Source: a virus
Virus genome (UHGV): UHGV-0430895
DNA: 27,017 bases
Reading direction: 5' to 3' (one strand)
Part shown: one piece after another, positions 6,835 through 27,017 of the stretch
Layout: every line of letters begins with the position of its first letter
How positions within the stretch are numbered: the first letter of the stretch is position 1
Translations under genes and position numbers: made by a program
The notes under the pieces: model-generated
Told to the model about the DNA's origin: nothing
Database searches by the model: none
What the model saw: only the letters and a program-made list of their open reading frames with translations

Positions 6835-7108
6835 TATCCATAAGAAAGCCCCTCCGGAGAGGGGCTGACGCTGCGTATCTGTATCATCATGCGCATGGTG
6901 CCGGGTGCCTCCCGGTGAGTTCAGTATCAGCACCTGAACCCGCACAGAAAGGATAAGGCTAAACGAAAACACCTGTACTGATATGCCCCGCCGCTGAGGG
7001 GGATTCACCATGCGACGCGATTTTTAACAAATTCGCAGTCAGTCAGACAATAATCAACTTGCTGAATTGTGAGGTATTTAAAAATTTCACCAGCTAACTG
7101 ATACCAGG

Positions 7109-7701: not shown

Positions 7702-7833
7702 CGTGACGTTCCTTTGGGTGGGTGAGCCAACGCCCGGGAGCGATCTGCCCACAGAGAAAGTCACACTGACCACTCCGTAAGCTCACCCCCGAAAGGCTCT
7801 GTGGTTGATATGCGCCGGGCGTGGCGCGGATAC

Positions 7834-7856
7834 AAAAAAGGCCGCCAATAGCGACC
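7834..7856 (-). terminator. Intrinsic terminator (minus strand) downstream of the 68-aa ORF
   Basis: Minus-strand GGTCGC-TATTG-GCGGCC followed by TTTTTT. A near-identical copy lies at 8427..8450. Confidence 0.55.
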
Positions 7857-7890
7857 TCAGTTACGGGATTATTCTGGGGTTAAACGACTG

Positions 7891-8097
7891 TTACTCCCAG
7901 ACAAAATCATCACTTCCTGTTCGATGCGAGCCATAGTGAACCTCGTACTTATCTCCCATCTTTCTTGCTTCCGTTTCTGCGTCTTCCTCTGTCGCAAAAA
8001 CCCCAACAAGATGCCAGGGCGAGCTTCTTACCACAGCCCAACCTTTAACCCATCCTTTGTTGTCCTTATCTTCCATTAACACTTCAGAAACAAACAT
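7891..8097 (-). CDS. 68-aa hypothetical protein
   Basis: ORF MFVSEVLMEDKDNKGWVKGWAVV...; no family recognised. Bracketed by the two terminator copies together with the 8150..8374 ORF. Confidence 0.45.
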   Translation of the reverse strand: MFVSEVLMEDKDNKGWVKGWAVVRSSPWHLVGVFATEEDAETEARKMGDKYEVHYGSHRTGSDDFVWE

Positions 8098-8149
8098 ATT
8101 TATCTCCTTGTGGGTACCCGGAGATATTTTATGATTGCTCCCGGTCAGA

Positions 8150-8374
8150 TCAATAAAGTGGCTTCAATTTTGCCTTAATGATCAAATCAGGGTGATTGAC
8201 GGAATCGTACACCACCTCAATATTTTCATCCGTGGCGTCGATAAGATATTCTTTTACATAAGGACCTGTTGATTTTCCATGAAATACATCTTCAACAAGT
8301 ACACTCTCCCCCTGAACAACACGAAAACTAACTTCTGTTTCGAACGGACCAATCGTCACCATCAGTTTTTTCAC
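8150..8374 (-). CDS. 74-aa hypothetical protein (paralog B of 1406..1630)
   Basis: GTG start with strong AGGAGG SD. Shares the N-terminal motif set with paralog A. Located right after the tRNA cluster, in the slot where stx sits in Stx phages. Confidence 0.55.
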   Translation of the reverse strand: MKKLMVTIGPFETEVSFRVVQGESVLVEDVFHGKSTGPYVKEYLIDATDENIEVVYDSVNHPDLIIKAKLKPLY

Positions 8375-8426
8375 ATAGCCTCCTGATAAGCACTCGATTT
8401 ATTAGTTAATGGTGTAACGCAGATAC

Positions 8427-8450
8427 AAAAAAGGCCCGCAAAAGCGAGCC
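8427..8450 (-). terminator. Intrinsic terminator (minus strand) downstream of the tRNA cluster
   Basis: Minus-strand GGCTCGC-TTTT-GCGGGCC followed by TTTTTT; homologous to the terminator at 7834..7856. Confidence 0.55.
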
Positions 8451-8463
8451 AGGTAAATAAATA

Positions 8464-8540
8464 TGGCGCGTTGTACTGGATTCGAACCAGTGACCGATTG
8501 CTTAGAAGGCAATTGCTCTGTCCGGCTGAGCTAACAACGC
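8464..8540 (-). tRNA. tRNA-Arg (anticodon TCT)
   Basis: Manual cloverleaf: acceptor GCGTTGT/ACAACGC, D-arm GCTC...GAGC, anticodon stem ATTGC/GCAAT with loop CTTCTAA, T-loop TTCGAAT, 3' CCA encoded. Confidence 0.8.
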
Positions 8541-8553
8541 AGGGTACGGATAA

Positions 8554-8630
8554 TGGACCGCCATCGAGGACTCGAACCCCGCGCAACCAGCTTCGAAGGC
8601 TGGCGCTCTATCCCGATGAGCTAATGGCGG
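8554..8630 (-). tRNA. tRNA-Arg (anticodon TCG)
   Basis: Manual cloverleaf: anticodon stem CCAGC/GCTGG with loop CTTCGAA, T-arm CGGGG-TTCGAGT-CCTCG, 3' CCA encoded. Exact ends are uncertain by a few nt. Confidence 0.7.
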
Positions 8631-8637
8631 TATGTGA

Positions 8638-8713
8638 TGGTGGCCCTTGCTGGATTTGAACCAGCGACCTGGCGATTATGAGTCGCTCGCTCTCACCACT
8701 GAGCTAAAGGGCC
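8638..8713 (-). tRNA. tRNA with CAT anticodon (Ile2/Met type, ileZ-like of Stx phages)
   Basis: Manual cloverleaf: acceptor GGCCCTT, D-arm GCTCAGTGGTGAGAGC, anticodon loop CTCATAA, T-loop TTCAAAT, 3' CCA encoded. Same position as ileZ-argN-argO in Stx phages. Confidence 0.75.
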
Positions 8714-8753
8714 GGGCGCAGAATAATAACGGTGCGTCACTGATTCTGCAATA

Positions 8754-9812
8754 TCATCCGTTCTGACTGATAAAATCCTGAACTTCCCTGACTGTCTGCT
8801 CAAAACGTCCGGTCTCCAGCTCAACACCAATCGCCCGACGTCCCAGTGACAGCGCCGCTTTTACCGTTGAACCTGACCCCATGAAAAAATCTGCAATCAG
8901 GTCACCCGGACGACTGCTCGCACTGATTATCTGCCGCAGCATTTCTGCCGGTTTTTCGCACGGATGTTTCCCGGGATAGTACTGCACCGGTTTATGCGTC
9001 CACACATCCGTGTACGGCACCTGCGCCGTCACGCCAAAATACCGCCGCAGATGCTTATATTCACTCTGCAGTTCCGCATACTGCCGGTTCAGTGAAGTAT
9101 ACGTCTCCAGCAGCTGGTGGTGGGGCTTTTCCAGTTCACCCCGCTGATGCTTCTCTTCTGCCACCCGGGCAAACAGCGCCTGTAATTTCAGATAATCACT
9201 TTCGTCCGGTAGCTGCCACTGACTGGCACTGAACCAGTGCGACACCATGTTTTTCTTTCCTGTGGCATCCACTATCTGTTTTGCCGTTATCCCCAGGGCA
9301 GCGCGCGCATCACGAAAGTAAGCAATCAGCGGGGCCATCACATGCTGTTTCAGTGCCCTGCCCTTCGCCTCATACCCGGCATCTTTCGGACGATACGGCC
9401 CCTGATAATGTTCCGCGAACAGAATGCGCTCTGTGGCGGGGAAATACGCCCTCAGGCTTTCCTTGTTGCACCCGTTCCAGCGTCCGGACGGCTTCGCCCA
9501 GATGATATGGTTCAGTACGTTAAACCGCTCACGCATCATGATTTCGGTGTCAGATGCCAGGCGATGCCCACAGAACAGGTAAAGGCTTCCGGCAGGTTTT
9601 AACACCCGCCAGAACTGCGCCAGACACTGGTCCAGCCACTTCAGGTAATCATCGTCGCCCTTCCACTGGTTATCCCAGCCCTCAGGCTTCACTTTAAAGT
9701 ACGGCGGGTCCGTGACTATCAGGTCAACAGAATTTTCGGGTAACGACCGGATAAATTCCAGGCAGTCGGCGTTGATTAACTCACAACTGGATATTTTTAC
9801 AGTATTAAGCAT
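8754..9812 (-). CDS. Orphan DNA N6-adenine/N4-cytosine methyltransferase (beta-class, DPPY)
   Basis: 352 aa; N-terminal catalytic motif IV (LIVTDPPYF) and C-terminal SAM-binding motif I (DFFMGSGST). No adjacent restriction endonuclease. Confidence 0.8.
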   Translation of the reverse strand: MLNTVKISSCELINADCLEFIRSLPENSVDLIVTDPPYFKVKPEGWDNQWKGDDDYLKWLDQCLAQFWRVLKPAGSLYLFCGHRLASDTEIMMRERFNVLNHIIWAKPSGRWNGCNKESLRAYFPATERILFAEHYQGPYRPKDAGYEAKGRALKQHVMAPLIAYFRDARAALGITAKQIVDATGKKNMVSHWFSASQWQLPDESDYLKLQALFARVAEEKHQRGELEKPHHQLLETYTSLNRQYAELQSEYKHLRRYFGVTAQVPYTDVWTHKPVQYYPGKHPCEKPAEMLRQIISASSRPGDLIADFFMGSGSTVKAALSLGRRAIGVELETGRFEQTVREVQDFISQNG

Positions 9813-13223: not shown

Positions 13224-13379
13224 TTACTTCTCAGATTCGTAGTCTACGAAGACAGCGACCTCCGTCTGGCCGGTTCGGATTCGTACCTCGCAGAGGTCTT
13301 TCCTCGTTACCAGTGCCGTCACTATGACGGTTAAACAGATGACAATCAGGGCGATTAACATCGCCTTTTGCTGCTTCAT
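13224..13379 (-). CDS. hokD: Hok/Gef-family type I toxin (HokD/RelF-like)
   Basis: MKQQKAMLIALIVICLTVIVTALVTRKDLCEVRIRTGQTEVAVF... is essentially the HokD sequence as I recall it. The upstream region is strongly structured (9-bp inverted repeat CTGTCTGCC/GGCAGACAG). Confidence 0.8.
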   Translation of the reverse strand: MKQQKAMLIALIVICLTVIVTALVTRKDLCEVRIRTGQTEVAVFVDYESEK

Positions 13380-13624
13380 AGCCTGCTTCTCCTTGCCTTT
13401 CGGCACGTAAGAGGCTAACCTACATGTGCAAAGCATGAAATTGGCCTCAGATTAATGTTAAGCGTCTTGCCGGACGCGTAATGTTAACTGGGGCTTTTCT
13501 CTGTCTGCCTTACGGTGGCATGCCCGAGGCAGACAGCCTCAAGCACCCGCAGCAATTCTACTTAACTCTCGCTTTACCGCAAACCGTTTTTACCCGATAT
13601 GGGAATCCCCATATCGCAATGAAA

Positions 13625-13844: not shown

Positions 13845-14150
13845 TCATCGTAAAACATCCTCCACACTTATCAGTCCATTTCGCTTCAGATAGTCCATCG
13901 CCTTATCCGGTAATTTGCAGTCCAACTTCGCTTTCTTCAGATGCCTGGCTAACTGCTTTACCAGCATGGTTAACTCGTAGACCGAACGTTGATACTCCAC
14001 TGGTTTGTATTCATGCAATTTACCAACTGGCTCTGCTTCCAGCAATGCCAGTGCAATCCGTGCCAGTTCCATTTGTTCGCCACGGGTAAGTCCGTTATCA
14101 AGCGGATTTTTAATGAATAATTCGATACGTTCTTTGGTAATAGAATTCAT
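13845..14150 (-). CDS. 101-aa hypothetical protein
   Basis: ORF packed tightly (1-nt gap) after the 14152..14400 ORF; no family recognised. Confidence 0.45.
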   Translation of the reverse strand: MNSITKERIELFIKNPLDNGLTRGEQMELARIALALLEAEPVGKLHEYKPVEYQRSVYELTMLVKQLARHLKKAKLDCKLPDKAMDYLKRNGLISVEDVLR

Positions 14151-14151
14151 G

Positions 14152-14400
14152 CTATTTCACCTTAATCTCAACATTTCGCAGCTTTAACTCTATTGGTAGG
14201 TCTGACTTTCCTGTTAATGCTAATGCGAGATTTTCAGGAGTAATGAGAGCAGTTATTGTTTTCCCCATCGCCAGACGAATAATCATTCGTATTTCGCGAT
14301 CGTCACATGCTCCTGGTCGAACAATTGATATTTGTCCGTTCATCTCACTCTCCTTTGATGCGAATGCCAGCGGTAATTGAAGCCTGATAGCTAATTTCAC
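14152..14400 (-). CDS. 82-aa hypothetical protein
   Basis: ORF contiguous with its neighbours in the replication operon; no family recognised. Confidence 0.4.
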   Translation of the reverse strand: MKLAIRLQLPLAFASKESEMNGQISIVRPGACDDREIRMIIRLAMGKTITALITPENLALALTGKSDLPIELKLRNVEIKVK

Positions 14401-14838
14401 TCACAGTACCGCCTCCTGAAAATTACCCTGATAGAAAGCCAGTACACGCCGCATAGCTTCGCTCTTCCGGCACTCGCGACAGATTATGTTCTGTCGTCTG
14501 TTGTAACGACGTATTTCTCCGTCTGGTAATGACCAGATAAGCTCAGGATCAACCACAACCGGTTTCTTCACCTTTGCCCTTGATAGTTTTTTGCGGGCGT
14601 TTTGCCATTCTTTACGCGCCTGCTCAGACGGGAATAATCCGTAGCCTGAATTGTAAACATCACCACTGGCAACCAATTCTCTGGCGAGAGTGCTTATGTA
14701 ATACCTTGATGCACCGGTTTTAGCCTCCAGAGCCCGTAACGTCTCGCGACCGCTCAGACGTACAAGTTCAACAACCTGCCCTTTAATTTTTTCCCGCTCT
14801 TCTGGTGTAAATACTTTTTCCATAGGTGCCTCCGGCAA
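14401..14838 (-). CDS. 145-aa hypothetical protein
   Basis: ORF contiguous with upstream and downstream genes; no family recognised. Confidence 0.45.
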   Translation of the reverse strand: MPEAPMEKVFTPEEREKIKGQVVELVRLSGRETLRALEAKTGASRYYISTLARELVASGDVYNSGYGLFPSEQARKEWQNARKKLSRAKVKKPVVVDPELIWSLPDGEIRRYNRRQNIICRECRKSEAMRRVLAFYQGNFQEAVL

Positions 14839-15582
14839 TCACTTTTCCGACACAATACGACTGGAGGAATCGAAAATCTGTCGAACAATATCCCGGTGCG
14901 TGTTCAGCTCCCGCAGCGCAGCACAGACGCGTTCCCACTTCTGGACATCACTTTTCGCCCGGCGCAGCTCGCGGTTAGCCACATGCAGCGATGGTAGAAT
15001 CAGGTCATCTGCTTTCATTTCGCTGAGCGATGGCTGTAACTTCACAATGTCTTCCACGATTTCTGTTTTCATTTCCTCCTGTGCCGTCGTTTCCTGGACT
15101 GGTAACGCAACACCTGCTGGCTGAGGAAAGGCTTTACCCTCCGTTTCCGCTACGGATGCAGCTTCCGGCTCTGCCGGTAAATCAGCGCCCGGTATGCAGT
15201 AACGAAATTTACCGCCCTGATTCACGCGAATCAGACGCCCTTTGCTGATTGCCATCGCCAGCGATGAATTCGCCCGGCGGGAGGTAATTCCGAACATCAG
15301 TGCCAGTTCATCCGCCGTTTGTGGGCCATGTTGTTCAATCGCCTCTGTCAGCATTTGCGCAGTCACTTTCGGTACCGGTGACACCGATTCACTTTCACCA
15401 GCCTGAGTCAGCCACCACATCGACCCCTTGTTATCCGCTTCACCGCGGCGCTTCAGTTTCCACAGTTCGTTGACCGCCTCTTCACGGCTGATTCCAAGGC
15501 GCGATGCCACTACCTGTGAAGAGGCTTTTTTCAGTGCTTTCAGTGCGTCAAATACGGTTTCCATTAAAACGTCCTCCGACAA
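14839..15582 (-). CDS. 247-aa hypothetical prophage protein (possibly winged-helix)
   Basis: ORF immediately downstream of the DnaC-like gene; no confident family assignment. Confidence 0.45.
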
Positions 15583-15585
15583 AAA

Positions 15586-16332
15586 TTACTTCACAACCCT
15601 CTGATTGCTGACATTTGGACGCCAGCTATCCCAGTTAAACGTCACCCATCGACCACCGTTCATGGTCATGCGGTCCATAATCCTCTCACCGAGAAGCGTA
15701 CTCATTGCGGCATGATTCAGGTTTGTTAACATCCCGACACTGCACAGTGATGCTGTCCGGCGATCAATTATCTGGTGCAATACCACCTGCTCGTTTTTCG
15801 TCTCACGCTGAACGCCTATTTCATCCAGGACCAGCAAATCAACCCCGCAAAGCTCCTGTAAAAATTTTTCCCCGGACTGGCCGTTGTCGTAGCTGTCATG
15901 CAACACACTCATGACGTCAGACACGGTGACGATAATCACGCTGCTCCCCTTCGCCATCAGCCGGTTGCCCATCGCCGCTGCAAGGTGATTTTTCCCGGTG
16001 CCGGTTTTACCGCTGAACACAAAATTCGTGCACCCGGTCATCAGTTCGTCAGCGATGGATTTTGCCTGGCTCAGCGCGTGTTTTTGCCCGTCGTTCTGCA
16101 CCTGATAATTCGCAAACGAGCATTTGCTGTGCAGAGGCTGGATGCCCGAACGATTCAGGATTTTTTCCACCCGCAACTGGCGATTCTGGCGGTTAATCTC
16201 CTCGCTGCGTTTTCGTCCTTCAGCAAGCTGCCATTCCCGCCACTCCTCCACCGTCCGGTACGGTGGAACCGCCCCCTGTGGTGCAAGTCTGCGAATACGT
16301 TCAAGAACCCCGGCTGCCGCAATGTTTTTCAT
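15586..16332 (-). CDS. DnaC-like helicase loader (IstB-type AAA+ ATPase)
   Basis: Walker A FSGKTGTGKNHLAAAMG, Walker B LLVLDEIG, and overall collinearity with E. coli DnaC. Confidence 0.85.
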   Translation of the reverse strand: MKNIAAAGVLERIRRLAPQGAVPPYRTVEEWREWQLAEGRKRSEEINRQNRQLRVEKILNRSGIQPLHSKCSFANYQVQNDGQKHALSQAKSIADELMTGCTNFVFSGKTGTGKNHLAAAMGNRLMAKGSSVIIVTVSDVMSVLHDSYDNGQSGEKFLQELCGVDLLVLDEIGVQRETKNEQVVLHQIIDRRTASLCSVGMLTNLNHAAMSTLLGERIMDRMTMNGGRWVTFNWDSWRPNVSNQRVVK

Positions 16333-16338
16333 GCCACG

Positions 16339-17316
16339 TCACCCCCTGAATCCAGGCGGTATTTCAGTGTCCGGTTCAGAAATGTGATTCACGCAACGAT
16401 GCTCGGGCGAACGCCCCAGGCGGATAACCAGTTCATCCCATTTTTCCCGGAGTTTTGCCGGACTCATGATGTTTTTTACCCAGAACGAATCCCGCTGGAC
16501 ACGCCCAAACATTTCACAAATCTGCCGGTGACTACGTCCATCCAGCATCCGCATTGTGCGCACGTCATTGGCCCATGCTGTCCAGTTGGGTTCTTTCGGT
16601 CTCGTGATCTCGCCATCATCGCTGGCCGCCTGCTCGTAAAGACTCACGATTCGTCCCCAGATCCACTGTGCGCACACCAAATCTTCCTGACTTCCCCACT
16701 GGCGTTTTTTCGCACTGAACACAACCGCGTCAGGGTGTCGGGTTAAAAAATCCTGTTCAGCCGTCTGCGGGTCCGGTTGCGAAGCGTCCGGACAAGAAGA
16801 TCTTTTCTCTGACGGATCAGGTTTTAATACTGACGGATCGGGGTCAATCATCGCCCCCCTAATCGGCAGTTTTTTATCAACAGTTGATCCATCAAAATTT
16901 GACGGGTCAACCGTTGAGGGGTCAATATTTGACGGGTCAACTGTTAACGGGTCATTTTTTGCCGGGCTAATTTTTCTTTTCGGTTTATATGCCTCACGCG
17001 CCGCAGTTGCAGCTGCTTCGAGTTTTTCCACATTAAGCCGATAGATATTGCTTACATTACGCCCACCGACCTTACGCTCTTCCTTCGTCAGCCAGCCCTC
17101 TTTCGCCAGTTCTGCAATAGCAGATTTAACGGTGGATTCACTTCTGGCACCGATCTGACGCCGGATAGTTTCAATGGCAGGCCATGACACGCCCTCGTCA
17201 TTGCTGTAGTCTGCTAGACGGGCCATCACTGCCACCCGGGATAAGATCATGCCGGTGAAGGCGCATCCTTCCCAGACAAGACCATGAAGCTTGCTGCTCA
17301 TAAAACCCCCGAACAC
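16339..17316 (-). CDS. Replication initiator (lambda O-like) containing the origin iterons
   Basis: N-terminal HTH region and a central repetitive peptide DPLTVDPSNIDPSTVDPSNFDGSTVD encoded by DNA iterons. Followed by the DnaC-like gene. Confidence 0.75.
   Translation of the reverse strand: MFGGFMSSKLHGLVWEGCAFTGMILSRVAVMARLADYSNDEGVSWPAIETIRRQIGARSESTVKSAIAELAKEGWLTKEERKVGGRNVSNIYRLNVEKLEAAATAAREAYKPKRKISPAKNDPLTVDPSNIDPSTVDPSNFDGSTVDKKLPIRGAMIDPDPSVLKPDPSEKRSSCPDASQPDPQTAEQDFLTRHPDAVVFSAKKRQWGSQEDLVCAQWIWGRIVSLYEQAASDDGEITRPKEPNWTAWANDVRTMRMLDGRSHRQICEMFGRVQRDSFWVKNIMSPAKLREKWDELVIRLGRSPEHRCVNHISEPDTEIPPGFRG
16899..16990. repeat. Origin of replication: four 15-bp-periodic iterons TT(G/A)A(C/G)GGGTCAA plus adjacent AT-rich tract
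   Basis: Direct repeats at 16899, 16914, 16929 and 16944 followed by TTTTTTGCCGGGCTAATTTTTCTTTT. This is the lambda ori-within-O arrangement. Confidence 0.7.
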
Positions 17317-17323
17317 CGTGCTG

Positions 17324-17749
17324 TTAGTGCATCACCACGGCATTTCCTGCCGGGCCGCCGCGATTCATCTGGTCATACAAAACAACCGCTGACGCAACAA
17401 AATCGTCGACATCCTTCACCAGCCGATCACGCCGTTCGACAATCTCCCGGTAATACTCAGAACTGTGACTGCGCATACGGGCCACCAGCAAAGGCGGCAT
17501 CGCCTTTTCGATCGCTGGTAACAGAGCCTGAATTTTTTCAACAGCATCAGGGGTGTCTTTATCCAGCCAACGGAAAATTTTCTGGGTATTACGGGCCAGG
17601 GCTTCCGGATGACTGTCGTCGTACAGTTCCGGGAACGTCATCCCCAGCTCGAAATACGCTTTGGTAATTTTCGCAGCCGGTACTTTTTCGCCGTCCGGAT
17701 GCGCCCAGGCATTCATCGCCATGCGGATGTGCTCATGCTTGATTTTCAT
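17324..17749 (-). CDS. ydaT: YdaT-like (CII-like) prophage regulatory protein
   Basis: N-terminus MKIKHEHIRMAMNAW resembles Rac YdaT as I recall it. Its start overlaps the Cro-like stop. Confidence 0.6.
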   Translation of the reverse strand: MKIKHEHIRMAMNAWAHPDGEKVPAAKITKAYFELGMTFPELYDDSHPEALARNTQKIFRWLDKDTPDAVEKIQALLPAIEKAMPPLLVARMRSHSSEYYREIVERRDRLVKDVDDFVASAVVLYDQMNRGGPAGNAVVMH

Positions 17750-18048
17750 GAATCAACTCCATCAGATAAGCATGTACTACAATCACCTTCAGCATGAACT
17801 GCATGCGTTTGCCCCAAACGAATTCCGTTCGCATACTCAGGCCAAATAAGCTCCCAATCATGGGGTCGTAGCTCCGCCCTACTTACTTGGCCTTCTGTCG
17901 CAGATTCGATCATAAGGGCGCGGGTTGGAGATATAGCTGCTCGTCCAGACGCCATTTGCGATAAGTAAGATGGCGATACACCAAGTCTGGCCGCGAATTT
18001 CTTAGCGTCACCAACCTTCAATGATTTAATAAACTCTTTTAATGTCAT
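17746..18048 (-). CDS. Cro-like HTH regulator (DicC/YdaS analogue)
   Basis: HTH (FAARLGVSPSYLSQMASGRAAISP); first gene of the rightward operon, divergent from the repressor; strong SD GAGGAAGG. Confidence 0.7.
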   Translation of the reverse strand: MTLKEFIKSLKVGDAKKFAARLGVSPSYLSQMASGRAAISPTRALMIESATEGQVSRAELRPHDWELIWPEYANGIRLGQTHAVHAEGDCSTCLSDGVDS

Positions 18049-18144
18049 ACCTTCCTCGGTTTAGTGTTTTTTTTGAGTTTAGTGTTTAATAAACCATTAA
18101 GTCAAGTATTTGCTTGTTTAGTGATTACTAAAGATAATTACCGC
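18049..18144. promoter_or_regulatory. Divergent immunity promoter/operator region with three TTTAGTG operator motifs
   Basis: TTGCTT-17 nt-GATAAT promoter whose spacer is the palindrome TTTAGTGATTACTAAA (18117..18132); the -10 ends 6 nt before the repressor ATG, suggesting a leaderless mRNA like lambda cI from PRM. Opposite-strand -35 TTGACT faces the Cro-like gene. Confidence 0.6.
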
Positions 18145-18516
18145 ATGCAAAAAAAAGAAATTCGCCGTTTACGTCTCAAGGAGTGGTTTAAAGATAAAAC
18201 TCTGCCACCCAAAGAGAAGAGCTACCTATCTCAACTAATGAGCGGGAGAGCCTCGTTTGGAGAAAAGGCTGCCAGAAGAATAGAGCAAACATACGGGATG
18301 CCGGAAGGGTATTTGGATGCGGAATACGCAGAACAACCGGAGGTTTCTCCGCCACATGCAGGGTTAACGTCTAATCAACTGGAATTATTGCAGATTTTTT
18401 CAGCCTTCCCTGAGGATGAGCAACGCCAGATAATCAGCGAGTTAAAACAGAAAAAAGAATCAATGGAAGATCTCATAGCGAGATGGATTGCGGCGCAAAA
18501 ATGCCGCCGCGCCTAA
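18145..18516 (+). CDS. dicA: DicA-like prophage repressor (XRE HTH, no S24 peptidase domain)
   Basis: HTH (LSQLMSGRASFGEKAARRIEQTYGMPEGYL) and a C-terminal LTSNQLELLQIFSAFPEDEQ motif paralleling DicA's LSPKELELLELFNALPESEQ. Confidence 0.7.
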   Translation: MQKKEIRRLRLKEWFKDKTLPPKEKSYLSQLMSGRASFGEKAARRIEQTYGMPEGYLDAEYAEQPEVSPPHAGLTSNQLELLQIFSAFPEDEQRQIISELKQKKESMEDLIARWIAAQKCRRA

Positions 18517-18536
18517 GTTATAAAACCGGAGGAAAC

Positions 18537-18728
18537 ATGAATAGAGCCCTTTCACCAATGGTTTCTGAGTTTGAAACCATTGAACAAGAAAACAGTTACA
18601 ACGAATGGCTGCGTGCGAAAGTAGCAACGAGCCTTGCAGATCCGCGCCCAGCAATTCCCCATGACGAAGTTGAGCGCAGAATGGCAGAACGCTTTGCTAA
18701 AATGCGCAAGGAACGGAGCAAGCAGTAA
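18537..18728 (+). CDS. ParD-like type II antitoxin
   Basis: 63 aa with GGAGG RBS; C-terminal LADPRPAIPHDEVERRMAERFAKMRKE resembles ParD-family antitoxin tails. Its stop is 1 nt from the toxin start. Confidence 0.6.
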   Translation: MNRALSPMVSEFETIEQENSYNEWLRAKVATSLADPRPAIPHDEVERRMAERFAKMRKERSKQ

Positions 18729-18729
18729 A

Positions 18730-19008
18730 ATGTTACCCGTGTTATGGCTTGAAAGCGCAGATACCGACCTAGATGATATAACTAGTTATATTGCTCGTTT
18801 CGACATAGATGCGGCAGAACGCTTATGGCAGCGATTAAGGGGTTGTGTGCTGCCGTTATCCGAACATCCGTATTTATACCCACCAAGCGACAGAGTACCT
18901 GGCTTGCGTGAGATTGTGGCCCACCCTAACTATATAATTCTATACCGCGTAACAACATCAAGCGTTGAAGTAGTAAACGTGATCCACGCAAGACGCCAGT
19001 TTCCCTAA
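18730..19008 (+). CDS. ParE/RelE-superfamily type II toxin
   Basis: 92 aa; C-terminal YIILYRVTTSSVEVVNVIHARRQF matches the ParE signature (YRI...V.I.RV.H.R). Confidence 0.7.
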   Translation: MLPVLWLESADTDLDDITSYIARFDIDAAERLWQRLRGCVLPLSEHPYLYPPSDRVPGLREIVAHPNYIILYRVTTSSVEVVNVIHARRQFP

Positions 19009-19079
19009 CTTTCACTACCAATAGAAACACAACAACCGCAACGACTTTATCAAAAGCGTTGTGTTTGTTGCGCCTCTTG

Positions 19080-19130
19080 GTTTAGTTTTTACTTGACTTG
19101 AGTTTAACATTTATTAAACTATAAGTGCTA
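19080..19130 (+). promoter_or_regulatory. Candidate leftward-operon promoter/operator (pL/dicBp analogue) with TTTAGT operator motifs
   Basis: TTGACT-16 nt-TAAACT with operator-like GAGTTTAACATTTATTAAAC, which resembles GAGTTTAGTGTTTAATAAAC in the 18049..18144 region. Confidence 0.5.
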
Positions 19131-19298
19131 ACCCACCCCGCCCCACAGAACGCAGGGCAATACTTCGAGTTACCCGGCAGTGGTCAGGGGTTAAGTAGCC
19201 AGCCCGAGGCGTATGAACATGACGGCGGGAACACTTTGTATAACAGCGCAGCAGGTTTTTAGTTCCGCGACCCGGCGTTAAGGGGAAATGAGGTCAAC

Positions 19299-19451
19299 AT
19301 GGATACCATCGATCTTGGCAACAACGAATCTCTGGTGTGCGGCGTCTTCCCCAATCAGGACGGCACGTTTACCGCGATGACGTATACCAAAAGTAAAACG
19401 TTTAAAACCGAAGCTGGCGCGCATCGCTGGTTAGCCAGAAACGCCAACTGA
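19299..19451 (+). CDS. ydfA: YdfA-like (DUF1391) 50-aa protein (below ORF-track cutoff)
   Basis: ATG with GAGGT RBS. Translation MDTIDLGNNESLVCGVFPNQDGTFTAMTYTKSKTFKTEAGAHRWLARNAN. First gene of the dicB-type operon, as in Qin. Confidence 0.55.
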   Translation: MDTIDLGNNESLVCGVFPNQDGTFTAMTYTKSKTFKTEAGAHRWLARNAN

Positions 19452-19597
19452 TTAGCGCCAGTAAAAACAGGTTTCCACAGGTTAATGTACCCTGAAAAGT
19501 CATGGCATAACACGAAAGCGCACGGAGAGGTTTCTTTGCATATAAGTCTTGTCGTTAAATTTCTTCGACCGTGCGCTTCCGGTTGTGTAGCCAGTGC

Positions 19598-19657
19598 AAC
19601 CTCGTGGTGTACCCATTGGCGGCATCGGTTTGTTGCTGACTGATGTCCGCCCTTTTT
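19598..19657 (+). ncRNA. dicF: DicF-like sRNA with intrinsic terminator
   Basis: Core UUGGCGGCAUCGGUUU...GCUGACUGAUGUCCGCCC-UUUUU parallels K-12 DicF (UUGGCGGUAUCAGUUUUACUCCGUGACUGCUCUGCCGCCC-UUUUU) as recalled. Lies between ydfA-like and dicB, the native dicF position. Confidence 0.6.
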
Positions 19658-19835
19658 AAAGTGAATTTTGTGATGCGATGAATGCGGCTATGCGCACGCG
19701 GAACAGTTAAAGCAGTAAGGCGGTATTTTACTGGCGTAACAAGCATCAACTAACCCGGCGTTAATTGTTAACTGGTTAACGTCACCTGGAGGCACCAGGC
19801 ACTGCATCACAAAATTCATTGTTGAGGACGCGATA

Positions 19836-20024
19836 ATGGAAACGTTATTACCAAACGTTAATACGTCTGACGGTTGTTTCGATATTGGTGTTCTGCTCAG
19901 TAACCGGGAGTTTACTGAAGATGCCATTAAGATGAGAAAATATGAGCCTTATCTTCTCAATGATAATTCCATACTCTCCAGAATTGCCCTTCTTGAACTT
20001 GGTATTTTCGGAGAATGTCAATGA
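19836..20024 (+). CDS. dicB: DicB cell-division inhibitor (Kil-like)
   Basis: 62 aa; METLLPNVNTSDGCFDIGVLLSN..FTEDAIKMRK... closely parallels K-12 DicB (MKTLLPNVNTSEGCFEIGV...FTEDAINKRK). Confidence 0.85.
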   Translation: METLLPNVNTSDGCFDIGVLLSNREFTEDAIKMRKYEPYLLNDNSILSRIALLELGIFGECQ

Positions 20025-20209
20025 CTTCAGCATTTGCACTGGTGATGACGGTTTTTCTTATAACGGGTGAATCACAGAATGTGATTACCGGAATTTATGC
20101 CAGTAAAGAATCCTGCCATCAGGCAAGAGACGAGCAAAAAATTTCCGGTGAATGTCTCCCGTTAAACAAAGTATCGCTGTACCTGAATAACGAAATACCG
20201 GCTGGATAA
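20015..20209 (+). CDS. ydfD: YdfD-like small membrane protein
   Basis: 64 aa with an N-terminal TM segment (MSMTSAFALVMTVFLITG); overlaps the dicB stop, as ydfD follows dicB in Qin. Confidence 0.6.
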   Translation: MSMTSAFALVMTVFLITGESQNVITGIYASKESCHQARDEQKISGECLPLNKVSLYLNNEIPAG

Positions 20210-20301
20210 CCCGCCAGCCATATTAACACCATACCCGTTGATTAAGTATGCCAGCAATGGCAGGGATTCGTACAACCTTAAAATAGTTATGAGGTTTATC
20301 A

Positions 20302-22791
20302 ATGAGCACTGATAAAGAAGAAATTGCACTGTATTACGAAGCCAAAAATGACAAAGTCAGAAAACGCCTTGGGATTAAAGGCGGTTTTTACTGGCGCACA
20401 GCAAAAAAATTATCGGTTGCAATATCACGGGGTGTTGTCGCAATGGACGATGCTGGATTTGACGAAGAGGATTTCAAAAAACCTGTTCGCGTGAATTTGC
20501 CCATTGTTAATGACCTGCCGCCTGAAGGTGTGTTTGATACCGAATTCTGCAACCGCTATGAAAAAGGCGGGGAAGATGGCATCACCATGATGGCTATACC
20601 CTTCAATGACAACATCAACGGTGAAGATGCCACAACTGCTGGCGATGACAACGATGACCCGGACGGAACTATTCCGGATGATGTGGAGAAAAACGAATCC
20701 CCGGACAGCGACGATGACTGTTCTGAGTGTGAAATTCCCGTCGCCACTCTGAGCCTTACTCATCGCTTCCTTCACCTCTTCTTATTCAGCAAAGATGAAG
20801 ATGGAAAATACCGGCATCATGCCACACCAGAACAACGCAATAACGTGATCCGTATGGAGATGGACACAGAGGACAGTTACCTTCAGAGCCTGCTTACTGC
20901 TGTGCGTTCACATCCAGAACTGGATAAGCTGACGAATTATCATCTGGGAAGACTGGCACAATCCGTTGGAAAGGCATTCTCTCACTCAACAACCCGTCAT
21001 ATCGGCCCGGCCGAATTCGACAAGTTCATCTCCACCTGGATGAAAACAGACTATGTGGATCAGGGATTGCTGACAAAAGAATGGCAGAAAGGAAATTGTG
21101 TTACAGGCATCACCCGTACGCCTTCCGGTGCTAACGCTGGCGGCGGAAATCTTACCGATCGTGGCGAAGGCTTTACCCACAATCAGGCATCACTGGCGCG
21201 AGACATTGCCACTGGCGTTCTTGCCCGTTCAATGGATGTGGATATTTATAACCTGCACCCTGCACATGCAAAACGCGTTGAAGAAATCGTTGCAGAGAAT
21301 AAACCGCCCTTTTCTGTTTTCCGTGACAAATTCATCGCCATGCCCGGTGGGCTGGATTATTCCCGCGCCATTGTGGTGGCTTCCGTAAAAGAAGCACCAA
21401 TCGGCATTGAGGCTATCCCGGCGCGCGTGACTGAATATCTCAACAAAGTGTTGACCGAAACCGATCATGCCAACCCTGATCCGGAAATCGTGGATATTGC
21501 CTGCGGTCGCTCATCAGCCCCGATGCCGCAGCGCGGAACAAAAGAAGGAAAACAGGATGATGAAGAAAAACCGCAGCCATCTGGCGCAATGGCAGATGAA
21601 CAGGCAACGGCTGAAACAATGGCAGCGGATACAGTTGAACATCATCAGGATCCGCAGCCGCTGGATGATAAGTCACAGATAAAAGTTACCGCTGAAGAAG
21701 TAAATAAAATTATGGAGGCAGCAAACATCAGTCGACCAGATGCCGACAAATTGCTTGCCGCTTCTCGTGGTGAGTTTGTTGAAGGGATTAGCGACCCGAA
21801 TGATCCAAAATGGGTGAAGGGGATTGAAACCCGCGATTCGGTGAACCATAACCAGCAAGAAACGGAACAGAAAGGCCATAAAGCGGAACAACACAGTCCA
21901 AATGCGCAACAAAACGAGCCAGAAACGAAACAGCCTGAACCAGTAGCGCAACAGGAACCGGAAAAAGTCTGCACAGCCTGCGGTCAGACCGGCGGCGGCA
22001 ACTGTCCTGACTGTGGCACGGTGATGGGCGACGCAACATACCATGAGACATTCAACGAAGAAAGTCAGGATGAAGCCCGGGAAAAAGATCCGGAGGAAAT
22101 GGAAAGTGCCGGACTCCCGAACAAGGAGTGCACCGAAGGCGATCAACATGCCAATGGCAATAATGAAACAGGCGAGACAGCAAATCTCTTAATTAAGGTG
22201 AACGGTCATCGTGAAATCACATCCACCAGCAGGTTGTGGCACCATCTGATGATTGACCTTGAAACAATGGGCAAAAATCCTGACGCACCAATAGCCTCAA
22301 TAGGCGCTGTATTTTTCGATCCACAAACCGGAGAGCAGGGGCCTGAATTCAGCAAAATAATTGATATGGGTACATGTGGCGGCACTGTCGACATAAGCAC
22401 AATCGAATGGTGGCTGGTACAGTCCAGCGAGGCCAGAACTGCAATTTTGGTAAATCAAATCCCATTAGATGATGCGCTGCTGCAACTCAAGGAATTCATC
22501 AGCGAGCATTCAGATGAAAAATTCGTGCAGGTATGGGGCAATGGTGCAACTTTCGACAACGTGATTTTACGCCGTTCATACGAACGACAGGGTATCCCCT
22601 GCCCGTGGCGCTACTGCAACGATCGCGATGTACGCACAATCGTTGAGCTGGGGAAAGCCATAGACTTCGATGCCAGAACGGCTATTCCATTCGAAGGTGA
22701 GCGCCATAATGCACTTGATGACGCTCGTTACCAGGCAAAATACGTTTCAGCTATCTGGCAAAAACTGCTCCCGAGTCAGGCTGATTTTTAA
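20302..22791 (+). CDS. Large (829 aa) prophage protein with central Cys4 zinc ribbon and C-terminal DEDDh 3'-5' exonuclease domain
   Basis: C-terminal motifs MIDLETMG (Exo I), [10 protein letters not shown] (Exo II) and HNALDDARY (Exo III); [16 protein letters not shown] zinc ribbon; acidic, low-complexity central region. It sits where recE/exo lies in lambdoid phages. Confidence 0.7.
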
Positions 22792-22852
22792 TGTTCAACC
22801 GTCGCCAGTTGTCGTTGGTATTCTGCAACTGGCGCGTTCCGGAGTGATAGCC

Positions 22853-23122
22853 ATGAGCGAACAGTACCTGATAACGCTCGATGAGTGGAAGCCAAAACGG
22901 TTCAGTCTCCCAATAACAAACACTACCCTAGTGAAATACGGAAAACTAGGATACATCGTTCCAAGACCACAAAAAATTCGTGGGCGTTGGCTGATAGATC
23001 GCCGAGCAGTATTTGTTGGACCTGGTGAAACAGGAATTGCGCCGGAAATTCATACTGGCGATGATGATGCACTGAAGGAGATTTTAACTCATGTCACCGA
23101 GGCCACGAAAAAACAGCACTGA
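22853..23122 (+). CDS. xis: Excisionase (Xis)
   Basis: 89 aa from MSEQYLITLDEWKPK with GGAG RBS, directly upstream of and overlapping int. Confidence 0.65.
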   Translation: MSEQYLITLDEWKPKRFSLPITNTTLVKYGKLGYIVPRPQKIRGRWLIDRRAVFVGPGETGIAPEIHTGDDDALKEILTHVTEATKKQH

Positions 23123-24209
23123 CGTAGCCGGACTTTACGAAAAATTTGATCGCAGAACTGGCAGAGTTTACTACCAGTATAAAAACCCTGTGACTGGAAA
23201 ATTTCACGGGCTCGGAACAGACAAAGGTAAGGCAGAAAAAATCGCTTCCACAGCCAATCAGCGAATAGCTGCAGCAGAGGCTGAATATTTCATGCGCAAA
23301 ATTGATGAAAGTCCGTCAGCAACAAAGCGTCGGGGTATCAGATTAAAGGCATGGGTTGATCGATATCTGAAAATACAGGACACGCGACTGAAAAATGGAG
23401 ATATTGCAGCTACAACCCACAAAGAAAAAGTGCGAATGGCTGCATACCTGGTTTCCCGCCTGGGAAACCACCCATTGAAAGAACTGGAGGTAAGAGACTT
23501 TGCATTAATACTGGACGAGTGGATGGATAAAGACATGGTCAGCACAGCAAGAGTAAATCGCGGATTATGGGTTGATATTTATAAAGAAGCACAGCATGCA
23601 GGGGAAGTTCCTCCTGGATGGAATCCTCCGGAGGCTACCCGTAAACCGATCCCTAAAGTGACCAGATCCAGACTCACCCTGGAAGACTGGCAAAAAATTT
23701 ACAACGCAACGCCTGAAAAACACTTTATCCGTAACGCAATGCTTCTTGCGATTGTTACTGGTCAGCGCCGTGATGACATTTGCCACATGCGTTTTTCAGA
23801 TGTGTGGAACGAACACTTGCATATCACCCAGGGAAAAACCGGAATGCGTCTGGCGTTACCGCTTACACTACGCTGTGATGCCATTGGGATAACGTTAAAA
23901 GAAGTTATTGATGGGTGCCGAGACAGAATATTAAGTCCATATCTAATCCATAGTCGGCACCAGAAACAACCAAAGCCGATGAGTAAAGACAACCTGAGCG
24001 ACTACTTTGCCAAAGCACGGGATCTGGCTGGGATAACTCCACCAGCAGGAAAAACTCCGCCAACATTTCATGAACAACGCTCCCTGTCAGAACGACTGTA
24101 CCGCGCGCAGGGTATTGATACAAAAACATTACTGGGACATAAAGTCCAGGCAACCACCGATCGTTATAACGATACTCGTGGTCAGGAATGGGTTAAATTG
24201 GTTGTTTGA
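23091..24209 (+). CDS. int: Tyrosine integrase (lambda Int family)
   Basis: 372 aa with a catalytic C-terminal domain (R...HxxR...Y pattern: AIVTGQRRDD, FHEQRS, LLGHK...DRY). Last prophage gene before a convergent terminator. Confidence 0.85.
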   Translation: MSPRPRKNSTDVAGLYEKFDRRTGRVYYQYKNPVTGKFHGLGTDKGKAEKIASTANQRIAAAEAEYFMRKIDESPSATKRRGIRLKAWVDRYLKIQDTRLKNGDIAATTHKEKVRMAAYLVSRLGNHPLKELEVRDFALILDEWMDKDMVSTARVNRGLWVDIYKEAQHAGEVPPGWNPPEATRKPIPKVTRSRLTLEDWQKIYNATPEKHFIRNAMLLAIVTGQRRDDICHMRFSDVWNEHLHITQGKTGMRLALPLTLRCDAIGITLKEVIDGCRDRILSPYLIHSRHQKQPKPMSKDNLSDYFAKARDLAGITPPAGKTPPTFHEQRSLSERLYRAQGIDTKTLLGHKVQATTDRYNDTRGQEWVKLVV

Positions 24210-24254
24210 CGAAATAAATACAGCTGAAAAATGTTGATATTGCTTTGCTAGTGT

Positions 24255-24277
24255 AAAAACCCCGGCATCAACCGGGG
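24255..24277 (-). terminator. Intrinsic terminator for the DUF2335-like gene, in the probable att region
   Basis: Minus-strand AACCCCGG-TTGATG-CCGGGGTT followed by TTT, 46 bp after the int stop. Confidence 0.5.
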
Positions 24278-24285
24278 TTCGGAGA

Positions 24286-24753
24286 CTAATCTTGATCAGG
24301 TTCCTGCTTAGAATAATGTTTTCCAACAATAAATGCCGTAACCAATGCAACAAGATCTATTGAAACGAGAGTTCCGGCAAGAACTGTCTCCCCCATGACG
24401 CCAAAGACAGTGGCAGCTAAGATGATCAATATTGCCAACCAAAAAGCCTTTGTTTGACCATCTCTGGCAATATCAATGCTATCAGCCACTGTTTTATGGC
24501 GATGAGCCTGCTCTTTTTCGGTCAACTCAACAAGTCGATTTGCAAGCCCAGGCACCAGTTGATCATACTTTTTAAGCATTGAAGGTGGCGGAACAGGCCC
24601 CTGAAAATGCTGGCAAACAATAGCCCGCACCTGCGGACTATCCAAAACCCTGTTTAAGACCTCTGGATTTTCGATTACTCGAGAAACCAGTTCATTATCC
24701 TTTTGTTCTTCACAAGTGAGTTTGGTGTTCTCACTTTCTTTTTGATCTGGCAT
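24286..24753 (-). CDS. Membrane protein (DUF2335-like), outside the prophage or at its edge
   Basis: 155 aa with two C-terminal TM helices (AFWLAILIILAATVFGVMG, LVSIDLVALVTAFIVG). Confidence 0.5.
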   Translation of the reverse strand: MPDQKESENTKLTCEEQKDNELVSRVIENPEVLNRVLDSPQVRAIVCQHFQGPVPPPSMLKKYDQLVPGLANRLVELTEKEQAHRHKTVADSIDIARDGQTKAFWLAILIILAATVFGVMGETVLAGTLVSIDLVALVTAFIVGKHYSKQEPDQD

Positions 24754-24952
24754 TGTTCAGCTTTTCAACGTTAACGGATACCATTGCTTTTTGGAAATCG
24801 CCTCTGATAGCCGCAGCATCCTGACGCAAAGCGGAAACTGGATTCGCTGGCATACCATTTGCTGAAACGACCGTCGGGCTCAGGGCTATAACCGAGCCAA
24901 TGGCTTGTAACAAAGCCACACTTTTACGCTTCATAGTCACTCCTGAGTTCAA
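24731..24952 (-). CDS. Small secreted protein (signal peptide)
   Basis: MKRKSVALLQAIGSVIALSPTVVSA signal-like N-terminus; overlaps the downstream gene start. Confidence 0.4.
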   Translation of the reverse strand: MNSGVTMKRKSVALLQAIGSVIALSPTVVSANGMPANPVSALRQDAAAIRGDFQKAMVSVNVEKLNNARSKRK

Positions 24953-25416
24953 TGGGATTCAAAACGGATTCAAAGTGAATCTTGATAGCTAATTCTAATA
25001 CCACATTATGTGGTTTTTCAACACGAAGAAATCACATCAAAAATCTCATTCGGAAAGCGATATGGGTAAACAAACTGGAATACTTTTCTGTCCTAGTAAG
25101 CTCACCCATGTATAAAAATGCTGTAAAATGCGTGGTCCTGTTTTGGGGAAAAGTTTTGGAGAGATTTTGGAGAAAGGAAAAAATTGAATAAATTCAAAAT
25201 CCTGAAAGTGTCCCGCCTTATGAATAAGAAGGCAACAGAAATAGACGATTAGTGTTTTATATTCAAAAGGTTAATAGCAAATTTGGCATGCTTTTTACTG
25301 TCGAGTAAACTGCATGCCTCTATCCATAAAATCAAACAGTTGCAATCTAATTTTGGAGAACGTTTTTTCTTCTCCCTTTTAGTAAATCGCTATAAAAAAC
25401 AACAAATGATATAAAA

Positions 25417-25748
25417 ATGAACAATCCTAATCCATGCATGACGTGTGGTGCCTGTTGTGCATTTTCCGCGTCTCTTTTTACTGGGCTGAAGCAGATGATG
25501 CTGGCGGCACCATCCCCGTAACGATGACAGAACAAATCTCTCCGTACCATCGATGCATGCAGGGCACTAACCAGAAAAATCCTCGCTGTGTGGCCCTGTT
25601 CGGTGAGCCGGGAGTCAATGCCTGCTGCAGCATTTATGAAAATCGCTCATCCACCTGTAGAGAATTTCCGATGTCCGGCGAGAATGGTGTGATTAATGAA
25701 GCATGTAATCGTGCACGGGCGAAATACAGGCTACCCCCACTTTCCTAA
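25417..25748 (+). pseudogene. ykgJ: YkgJ-family (CxxCGxCC Fe/Zn-binding) gene with a -1 frameshift in a T-run
   Basis: Frame A (25417..25521) encodes [16 protein letters not shown] then stops. Frame B (25434..25748) encodes the rest ([15 protein letters not shown]...[16 protein letters not shown]). One extra T in the T4 run at 25462-25465 fuses them into a 110-aa protein. Confidence 0.6.
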
Positions 25749-26037
25749 ACGCGAGCGGTATCACTGTAATGGATGGTTTTCTATGCGAACATTCTAGATG
25801 TCTTAACAACTCACTTATTGTAATCAAGTTTCTTTCTTCTGGTCGGGGAGCATGTTGCTCCCCTTTTTTTATTGCATCATTACGGCAGCCACTGCACAGA
25901 GCGTTACCACCGTACCCAGCCACACAAAAAGCATGAAACACATCGCTCCTGCTGTGTAGCGCTTCTTTACGTATTTCAGATTTGCCTGTTTCATGACAAT
26001 TTACCAGATTGCTCTTCAGTACCGGATAACAATACGG

Positions 26038-26511
26038 CTATGCCCGTCCCACCAGGTGCTTCACACTCCTGTACCTCAGACCATTTTTACCAAGCCCCAG
26101 ATACAGAAAGGTGTTCACCGTCTTCGTGTTTATCCCCATTTCACGCGCAAGATGACACGGCTTTGACTCACGGTACACATAACCAAACATCACCACCATC
26201 TCGGACATCGTCAGAGGACGCGCATACGTGTTCTGCACCCAGTCACCGTTACGGATTTTCCTGTATGCATCCAGACGCCCCGTCATCTCCTCCGCATCCA
26301 GCTGAAGATAACGGCGTCCCTGAAACATACAGCACATCAGCCTGCCAAGCAGCGCATCACAGATAATCACCCATGATTCATCATGCTCCGGTGTGTGCTT
26401 CCTGTTCTCCGGCATAAAAAACTCCCGGGCCAGTATGACACTGTACCCCTCAAGCATCTGTTGCAGGCCATACTCCAGATAACGGTTGCGGGTCGCCAGA
26501 ATCACCTTCAT
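26038..26511 (-). CDS. LuxR/FixJ-type HTH protein (C-terminal HTH, atypical N-terminal domain)
   Basis: C-terminal LTMSEMVVMFGYVYRESKPCHLAREMGINTKTVNTFLYLG fits the LuxR-type HTH pattern. Confidence 0.5.
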   Translation of the reverse strand: MKVILATRNRYLEYGLQQMLEGYSVILAREFFMPENRKHTPEHDESWVIICDALLGRLMCCMFQGRRYLQLDAEEMTGRLDAYRKIRNGDWVQNTYARPLTMSEMVVMFGYVYRESKPCHLAREMGINTKTVNTFLYLGLGKNGLRYRSVKHLVGRA

Positions 26512-26540
26512 CGCATCTCCTCACTGTCTCTGAACACATG

Positions 26541-26576
26541 AAAAAAAACGGCAGGCCAAAATCCCGCGCCTGCCGT
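26541..26576 (-). terminator. Intrinsic terminator downstream of the autotransporter gene
   Basis: 9-bp stem ACGGCAGGC/GCCTGCCGT followed on the minus strand by TTTTTTTT. Confidence 0.6.
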
Positions 26577-26600
26577 CATGCTTCATGTCACTGTCAGCAA

Positions 26601-27017
26601 TTAAAACTCGAAGTTAACGCCCACGTTGTAAGAAACGTCACCGTCGCTTGCTGCAATACCCGCTTTCGCTGCGGTCTGCTCATTGAAACGGTAGCCAACA
26701 CCGACAGCAACGGCCTGTTTGTCACTGTAACCACCCAGGGCTGCCGTGGCGTTGAATTTGCCCACACTGTACGGCTGGAACAGACCGGCAAGTGCCGCAC
26801 TCTGTGCCGCTGCGCGTTTCATCTCTTCGTGGTTTTCACGAATCTGGCGTTGATGGTCATTCAGACGCGCATTGTGCTCCTGCAGCTGGCGGCTGTTTGA
26901 CTGAATCGCTTTTCTGTTGGTTGCAATGTCCTGGCTGTTAGTTCTTACAGATTTATCAAGGTCAACCACCGCTTCATTTACGCGTTTGGTTGTCTGCGTG
27001 TTACGGGCAGTGGTCAG
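26601..27017 (-). CDS. Trimeric autotransporter adhesin, C-terminal YadA-like membrane anchor (partial; 5' end outside window)
   Basis: Reading frame is open to the window edge. Coiled-coil stalk then anchor ...[41 protein letters not shown]...YNVGVNFEF, typical of YadA/Eib-type beta-barrel anchors. Confidence 0.7.

Follow-up and report, generated by a model that had tools for sequence, protein, structure and literature searches.

The gene pair behind the repressor of a lambdoid prophage encodes PaaA2 and ParE2 of Escherichia coli O157:H7

We show here that two small genes located directly behind the repressor gene of a lambdoid prophage, within a 27,017-nucleotide stretch of viral DNA (UHGV-0430895; the whole stretch is called the window), encode the PaaA2 antitoxin and the ParE2 toxin already known from E. 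coli O157:H7. With its neighbors considered, we regard it as all but certain that the locus is a paaR2-paaA2-parE2 three-component type II toxin-antitoxin (TA) operon, and that the prophage in whose immunity region it lies is of the CP-933P/Sp12 kind. The pair is arranged as follows:

18537..18728, plus strand: paaA2, antitoxin of 63 aa without a DNA-binding domain (PDB, Pfam and NCBIfam matches)
18730..19008, plus strand: parE2, ParE-family toxin of 92 aa (PDB 5CW7_B/5CZE/5CZF, Pfam PF05016)

The first-pass annotation had placed genes of 63 and 92 aa, 1 nt apart, downstream of the repressor gene and on its strand, and these coordinates proved to be exact. The paaA2 frame opens with an ATG at 18537, with GGAGG 4 nt ahead of it, and closes with TAA at 18726-18728; a single nucleotide (18729) separates it from the parE2 frame (ATG at 18730, stop at 19006-19008), and a gap of 20 nt separates it from the end of paaR2 (18516) on the same strand. 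The list of open reading frames gives longer starts for both genes (18483 and 18634), and the shorter starts were adopted because they match the crystallised proteins. All 92 residues of ParE2 are identical to PDB 5CW7_B, named 'ParE' (E 7e-60), as well as to 5CZE and 5CZF, while residues 2-63 of PaaA2 are identical to PDB 3ZBE, named 'PaaA2' (E 5e-37), with 5CW7 and 5CZE as further matches. Judging from this identity to crystallised proteins, the two frames are real genes and not chance ORFs.

A profile search, as proposed at first pass, returned a significant ParE match for the 92-aa protein (PF05016 ParE_toxin, 60.9 bits against a cutoff of 23) and was empty for RHH and ParD families. The sole Pfam match of PaaA2 is PF21217 (PaaA2, 70.7 bits against a cutoff of 27), with no HTH, RHH or ParD family at E<=0.01; in NCBIfam it matches NF050103 (84 bits), the model from which the NCBI label 'RelB family antitoxin' stems and which here names a PaaA2-type antitoxin. 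Hence the initial description as ParD/ParE-like was right for the toxin, on Pfam and PDB evidence, and wrong for the antitoxin, which is PaaA2-type and resembles ParD in its toxin-neutralising role only. Likewise, of the wording ParE/RelE-like only ParE stands. A RelBE assignment was rejected, with TIGR02385 (RelE_StbE) reaching 21.4 bits, under its cutoff of 27.9, while the ParE model scores well above its own; an assignment to canonical ParDE was rejected as well, given the absence of an RHH DNA-binding domain from the 63-aa antitoxin.

The gene ahead of the pair and the two genes divergent from it encode the proteins of a published genetic switch:

18145..18516, plus strand: paaR2, CI-analogue repressor of 123 aa, first gene of the operon, leaderless (PDB 7NKV/8C3K, O157:H7 comparison)
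17746..18048, minus strand: ydaS, Cro analogue (Pfam PF15943 and HTH_3; function from PMC8630535)
17324..17749, minus strand: ydaT, CII analogue activating PRE (PDB 8BT1, Pfam PF06254; function from PMC8630535 and PMC9986795)

Over 17300-19288 an O157:H7 genome is 96.5% identical to the window at the nucleotide level, with identical gene order. PaaR2 agrees with the O157:H7 protein at 121 of 123 residues, both substitutions (E66G and V67G) falling in the linker; its first 65 residues match PDB 7NKV/8C3K, named 'phage repressor protein CI', without a change, and its N-terminus MQKKE agrees with that of the sequenced protein (PMC8630535). YdaS differs from its O157:H7 counterpart by 5 substitutions in 100 aa, and YdaT by 2, as it also does from PDB 8BT1 over 140 aligned residues. 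The repressor had at first been called DicA-like. A weak resemblance to DicA does exist in the C-terminal ~50 aa, but an identity with DicA was rejected, as NF007257 (NCBIfam) reaches 28.8 bits, its cutoff being 101, and aligns with residues 70-119 alone. In the published account PaaR2 takes the position of DicA and CI but has little sequence similarity to them (PMC8630535). The C-terminal ~50 residues (~70-123; 18352-18516) are conserved at 40-52% among heteroimmune prophage repressors, and they also weakly match the DicA C-terminus and the repressor of the TA-less E2348/69 prophage. This distribution suggests that the repressor C-terminus may serve oligomerisation in all of these proteins, joined to DNA-binding domains that can be swapped.

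The regulatory sites surrounding these genes are equally recognisable:

17739..17756: OM, high-affinity operator of YdaT, TTGATTTTCATGAATCAA, at the ydaS/ydaT junction
18049..18144: divergent control region OR/PR/PRM of 96 bp, with repeats and hexamers, 97.9% identical to O157:H7
18055-18133: OR operators, GTTTAGT-type repeats
18105-18100 (-35 TTGACT) and 18081-18076 (-10 TAAACT), minus strand: PR, from a hexamer scan
18133-18138 (-10 GATAAT), plus strand: putative PRM, +1 at the A of the paaR2 ATG, read from sequence
19028..19072, plus strand: hairpin between the parE2 stop and PL, candidate operon 3' end or insulator
19076..19120, plus strand: OL and PL (-35 TTGACT 19093-19098, -10 TAAACT 19115-19120), driving ydfA-dicB-exonuclease-xis-int

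The 18-bp GTTTAGT-type repeats lie at 18077-18094 and 18116-18133 in OR and at 19080-19097 and 19102-19119 in OL; the window holds 5 matches where 0.8 are expected, a count not attained in any of 100 shuffles. The repeats at 19080-19119 match those at 18077-18133 and are followed by the dicB operon, bearing out the earlier claim of an operator-bearing promoter downstream of the pair. The PL hexamers (19093-19120, plus strand) are identical to the PR hexamers (18105-18076, minus strand). The operators and both promoters occupy the same places relative to the genes as in the published system. PL933P and PR933P of CP-933P likewise share the same -35 and -10, PL933P is repressed about 100-fold by PaaR2 and by YdaS, and footprints, 5'-RACE and a leaderless paaR2 have been published for that prophage (PMC8630535). 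The GATAAT located 6 nt ahead of the A of the paaR2 ATG would be the PRM -10, which fits the published leaderless transcript. OM shows zero mismatches to the published 5'-TTGATTN6AATCAA-3' site (PMC9986795), exactly at the published position, while the pattern alone is no more frequent in the window than expected (2 matches with <=2 mismatches against 2 expected).

Co-transcription of the pair with the repressor gene, as initially proposed, agrees with the published control of the operon from PRM and PRE (PMC8630535) and with our terminator scan, in which no plus-strand terminator-like site appeared between paaR2 and parE2. The same scan gave no canonical plus-strand terminator after parE2. 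It missed the hairpin at 19028-19072 because no T-run directly abuts the stem. The 96-nt stretch 19000-19095 containing this hairpin folds with an MFE of -24.5 kcal/mol (z = -4.6 versus shuffles), and its pair C19030:G19070 is replaced by T:A in two E. coli relatives, which amounts to one compensatory change. The hairpin may end the operon or insulate it from PL, and is a possible analogue of the lambda cI-rexAB transcript end.

The biology of this locus has been worked out experimentally in PMC8630535, PMC9986795 and PMC8138530, and in Hallez 2010 and Sterckx 2016 as cited there. According to the account of Hallez 2010 given in PMC8630535, paaR2-paaA2-parE2 was defined as a three-component TA in which ParE2 is toxic, nucleoid-associated and SOS-inducing, and PaaR2 represses its operon; by the account in the same paper, PaaA2 neutralises ParE2, lacks a DNA-binding domain and is degraded by ClpAP/ClpXP. 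Jurenas 2021 (PMC8630535) identified PaaR2, YdaS and YdaT as analogues of CI, Cro and CII, with the operon controlled from PRM and PRE, PRE activated by YdaT, and the region bistable. The TA genes were found to be transcribed in both states of the switch, and single-cell work detected no ParE2 activation in either. Post-segregational killing by the whole region keeps a mini-F plasmid as stable as ccdAB does, and the authors proposed that the TA, inserted in the immunity region, guards it against rearrangement or replacement (PMC8630535). YdaT function and the OM site were described by Prolic-Kalinsek 2023 (PMC9986795). The window presents all sequence-testable features of the PaaR-PaaA-ParE family, namely the toxin, the short antitoxin and a separate upstream regulator; toxicity, neutralisation, repression by PaaR and post-segregational killing are reported for identical or near-identical proteins in PMC8630535 and its reference 8. 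The suggestion of an addiction module made at first pass agrees with the mini-F stabilisation by these identical proteins.

The literature on identical or near-identical proteins shows the following circuit. PaaR2 is translated from a leaderless mRNA starting at PRM, and it represses PR and PL by binding the operator repeats between ydaS and paaR2 and those at PL, with PRM stimulated by low and repressed by high PaaR2. YdaS, competing for the PaaR2 sites, makes the switch bistable, and YdaT, upon binding OM, switches on PRE to give a second transcript through paaR2-paaA2-parE2. In this scheme paaA2 and parE2 ride on the repressor transcript. PaaA2, intrinsically disordered and degraded by ClpAP/ClpXP, wraps ParE2 in a tight complex, and free ParE2 associates with the nucleoid and induces SOS, presumably via topoisomerase poisoning. 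Upon loss of the cassette the labile antitoxin decays and ParE2 kills the cell, which on a plasmid amounts to post-segregational killing. Because every protein and site is conserved, we infer the same circuit for the window, and nothing in its sequence speaks against this. The pay-off would presumably be retention of the immunity cassette and of the prophage, for instance by preventing its exchange for a heteroimmune one. The bacterial DNA flanking the prophage is ~88.5% identical to E. coli, so that the Clp proteases or the toxin target could differ in this host.

The position of the pair invites a second reading, in which its main or a further role is abortive infection or superinfection exclusion in the manner of rexAB, with an incoming phage disturbing the synthesis or stability of PaaA2 and setting ParE2 free. 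The pair does sit where lambda has rexAB, flanked by the repressor gene and OL/PL, and it is transcribed in lysogens; its occurrence behind at least three repressor types is typical of prophage accessory cargo ('morons'). However, it has no sequence relation to RexA or RexB, and PMC8630535 reports addiction, proposes cassette stabilisation and contains no phage challenge data. In addition, PaaA2, ParE2, PaaR2, YdaS and YdaT have no match in PADLOC-DB v2 at E<=0.01, and membership in a defence system thus gains no support. We consider this reading unlikely. There is likewise only an outside chance that the pair also acts as a Rex-like exclusion device, or as a lock that kills cassette-swapped recombinants, in this prophage, which seems more complete, and in a host that is not a typical Escherichia. 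The rexAB-like placement in an immunity region, pointed out at first pass, is in print for identical proteins (PMC8630535, PMC9986795). In fact, the first-pass interpretation, including the rexAB analogy and addiction, has in essence already been published (Hallez 2010; PMC8630535; PMC9986795).

A survey of related loci bears on where the three-component arrangement comes from. In E. coli prophages the pair is found behind at least three different repressor types. With a 132-aa HTH repressor the TA proteins are 91-94% identical to those of the window (L005, L007), and with a 133-aa HTH repressor (L006) they are 67-70% identical; the latter repressor is presumably the PaaR1 type. E. coli MFDS1001074 (L007:3318-4629) carries tandem repressor genes ahead of the TA, one PaaR2-like (73%) and one of a second HTH type, and looks like a recombination intermediate between heteroimmune cassettes formed via the conserved repressor C-terminus and the TA.

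Outside these prophages, a scan of one genome per species returned ParE2 homologues of 47-74% identity at ~80 loci (L008-L087) in Alpha-, Beta- and Gammaproteobacteria, with no Escherichia species representative among them. At nearly all of these loci the gene immediately upstream encodes a PaaA2-like antitoxin of 62-66 aa. No PaaR homologue was found beside the free-standing loci by tblastn, and 40 upstream same-strand ORFs scanned in Pfam are unrelated genes (MutS, RadC, Rep3, DksA, HU and others), with one HTH protein. By this comparison, a short antitoxin without a DNA-binding domain is a family-wide trait, and the pair also occurs on its own as a two-gene module. Both observations favor the view that prophage repressor operons took up a pair that was already complete, and enteric prophages have probably acquired the module in this way. 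Loss of a DNA-binding domain from the antitoxin following insertion, the alternative put forward in PMC8630535, fits the survey less well. The capture reading is a modest addition to a question raised in the discussion of PMC8630535.

These free-standing pairs also bear on whether the window simply holds a canonical two-gene parDE, self-regulated through its antitoxin and merely adjoining a repressor gene. The toxin is a bona fide ParE-family member, and homologous pairs do stand alone without a PaaR-like neighbor in many other Proteobacteria. Yet the 63-aa antitoxin, without an RHH or ParD family match, is also reported to lack a DNA-binding motif (PMC8630535), the 20-nt gap to paaR2 contains a ribosome-binding site only and no promoter-like match, and the published control is by PaaR2, YdaS and YdaT (PMC8630535). 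Self-regulation of this kind is therefore highly improbable, and the three-component operon is the reading we retain.

The pair had also been described as inserted in the immunity region, and here the claim holds in part. Among 5426 complete E. coli genomes, 3818 have partial matches to window positions 17300-19300 and 591 cover at least 80% of it, so that the pair is not universal in the ydaT to ydfA backbone. The cassette itself (17761-19129) is present at >=80% coverage in 609 of the 5426 genomes (~11%), with identities mostly of 95-99% and 99.4% at best. In the relatives E2348/69 and ETEC1730 the TA is indeed absent. However, homology to these relatives ends at 17760 and resumes at 19130, indicating that the immunity cassette is exchanged in its entirety, ydaS through PL; a clean insertion of two genes into an otherwise identical interval is ruled out by this break. 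The repressor of the two TA-less relatives is a distant PaaR2 homologue with 23% identity. A PaaR2-type repressor without the pair was not seen in a distant blastn search with the cassette, for which 40 of 844 E. coli records were listed, a spread sample and no census. In these 40 records, matches with 81-100% coverage span the pair, and those with lower coverage comprise one or both TA genes (the antitoxin gene or the two together) and reach no further than the 3' end of a repressor gene. The cassette also occurs in a phage record (LR597642). In this genome, Escherichia phage Evi (LR597642.1, L090:3970-4250), the full cassette is 97.4% identical and parE2 is unannotated, the CDS features being only paaR2 and paaA2. 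The K-12 Qin prophage, as stated at first pass, has no such insert, its dicA-ydfA gap being 166 bp without an annotated gene; in Rac, racR is followed by ydaF with no TA.

The prophage around the cassette has genes for lysis (holin, lysozyme and Rz) and replication as well as a Q-like antiterminator; it further contains three tRNAs, a methylase and hok/sok besides the immunity region, the dicB operon and xis/int. Downstream of the cassette and in the late region the following features were located:

19299-19451, plus strand: DUF1391 gene, ydfA-like (Pfam)
19836-20024, plus strand: dicB, in the PL operon
8754-9812, minus strand: DNA methylase, late-region cargo
8467-8713, minus strand: three tRNAs, late-region cargo
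7270-7773, minus strand: TerB-domain protein, late-region cargo
6836-7043, minus strand: sRNA STnc100, late-region cargo
4696-6609, minus strand: NanS-p-like esterase, late-region cargo

DUF1482, exonuclease, xis and int follow dicB on the plus strand. Between the ydfA-like gene and dicB (19452-19835), where K-12 Qin has dicF, no match to DicF was obtained at the Rfam gathering threshold. The late-region cargo (4696-9812, minus strand) resembles that of Stx-converting phages, and no ORF of Shiga-toxin size is present between the tRNAs and the esterase. A second TA, of type I, is indicated by a sok antitoxin RNA (13374-13548, minus strand; Rfam RF01794, 117 bits), with hok presumably adjacent. 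The flank 3' of the integrase (24250-27017), with a DUF2335 gene and a ykgJ-like CxxCxxCC gene, has the ~88.5% identity to E. coli mentioned above over the roughly half of it that aligns. No complete E. coli genome covers >=80% of window positions 14000-27017. This copy therefore lies in another mosaic than CP-933P and probably in another host, most likely a divergent lineage of Escherichia or a member of a related genus.

That the pair might be a decaying, non-functional remnant in a cryptic prophage can be set aside as extremely improbable: CP-933P has been described as cryptic and ParE2 activity was undetected at steady state (PMC8630535), but both frames are intact, paaA2 and parE2 differ from an O157:H7 genome by 2 nt each with all 4 differences synonymous and 0 aa changes (which points to purifying selection) while the non-coding DNA 3' of parE2 is only ~90% identical, the identical proteins are toxic, neutralising and plasmid-stabilising (PMC8630535), and the window prophage has kept its genes for Q, holin, lysozyme, Rz, replication, xis and int.

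As a three-component TA wired into a lambdoid lysis-lysogeny switch, the locus is a textbook case, for which crystal structures of all four proteins and a regulatory model have been published. For annotation, its value lies in fixing the immunity region of the prophage and in naming the proteins and sites of the switch. The cassette circulates in about a tenth of the complete E. coli genomes, as counted above, and beyond typical E. coli.

The closest known system is paaR2-paaA2-parE2 of CP-933P (EDL933), the same as Sp12 (Sakai), with identical gene order and spacing, 100% identity for PaaA2 and ParE2, and 98% for PaaR2. It shares with the window the divergent ydaS-ydaT genes, OR/PR, OM and OL/PL, at ~3.5% nucleotide divergence. 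The two differ 3' of PL, where the window has the ydfA-like DUF1391 gene directly and the O157 locus has other small genes, and in their integration sites, the O157 locus lying by ompW, close relatives by potC and the window by a ykgJ-like region. The presumed paaR1-paaA1-parE1 type (CP-933M type) and a third repressor type in E. coli strain bR_120_Kylling have the same order as the window, with a repressor, a 62-63-aa antitoxin, a 93-95-aa toxin, PL and the dicB operon. The repressors share the C-terminal ~50-80 aa at 40-52% identity and differ in the N-terminal DNA-binding domains, and the cassettes are thus heteroimmune.

Canonical ParD-ParE systems (RK2, Caulobacter ParDE1, Vibrio ParDE2) have the ParE-fold toxin in common with the pair, Caulobacter ParE1 (PDB 3KXE) being matched at E 3.6e-5, and are alike in that the C-terminal part of the antitoxin wraps and neutralises the toxin and in their role in stabilising plasmids or other elements. 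In contrast to them, PaaA2 has no RHH, and control is exerted by a separate repressor and the phage switch instead of conditional cooperativity. The K-12 regions dicA-ydfA of Qin and racR-ydaF of Rac resemble the window in their divergent Cro-like and repressor genes followed by a DUF1391/ydaF gene and an operon with a cell-division inhibitor, but they have no TA after the repressor, and their repressors and operators are different. Finally, lambda cI-rexA-rexB displays the same layout, from PRM/PRE through the repressor gene and two accessory genes to OL/PL. However, the accessory proteins share no sequence similarity, and Rex is an infection-triggered exclusion system, whereas PaaA2-ParE2 is an addictive type II TA.
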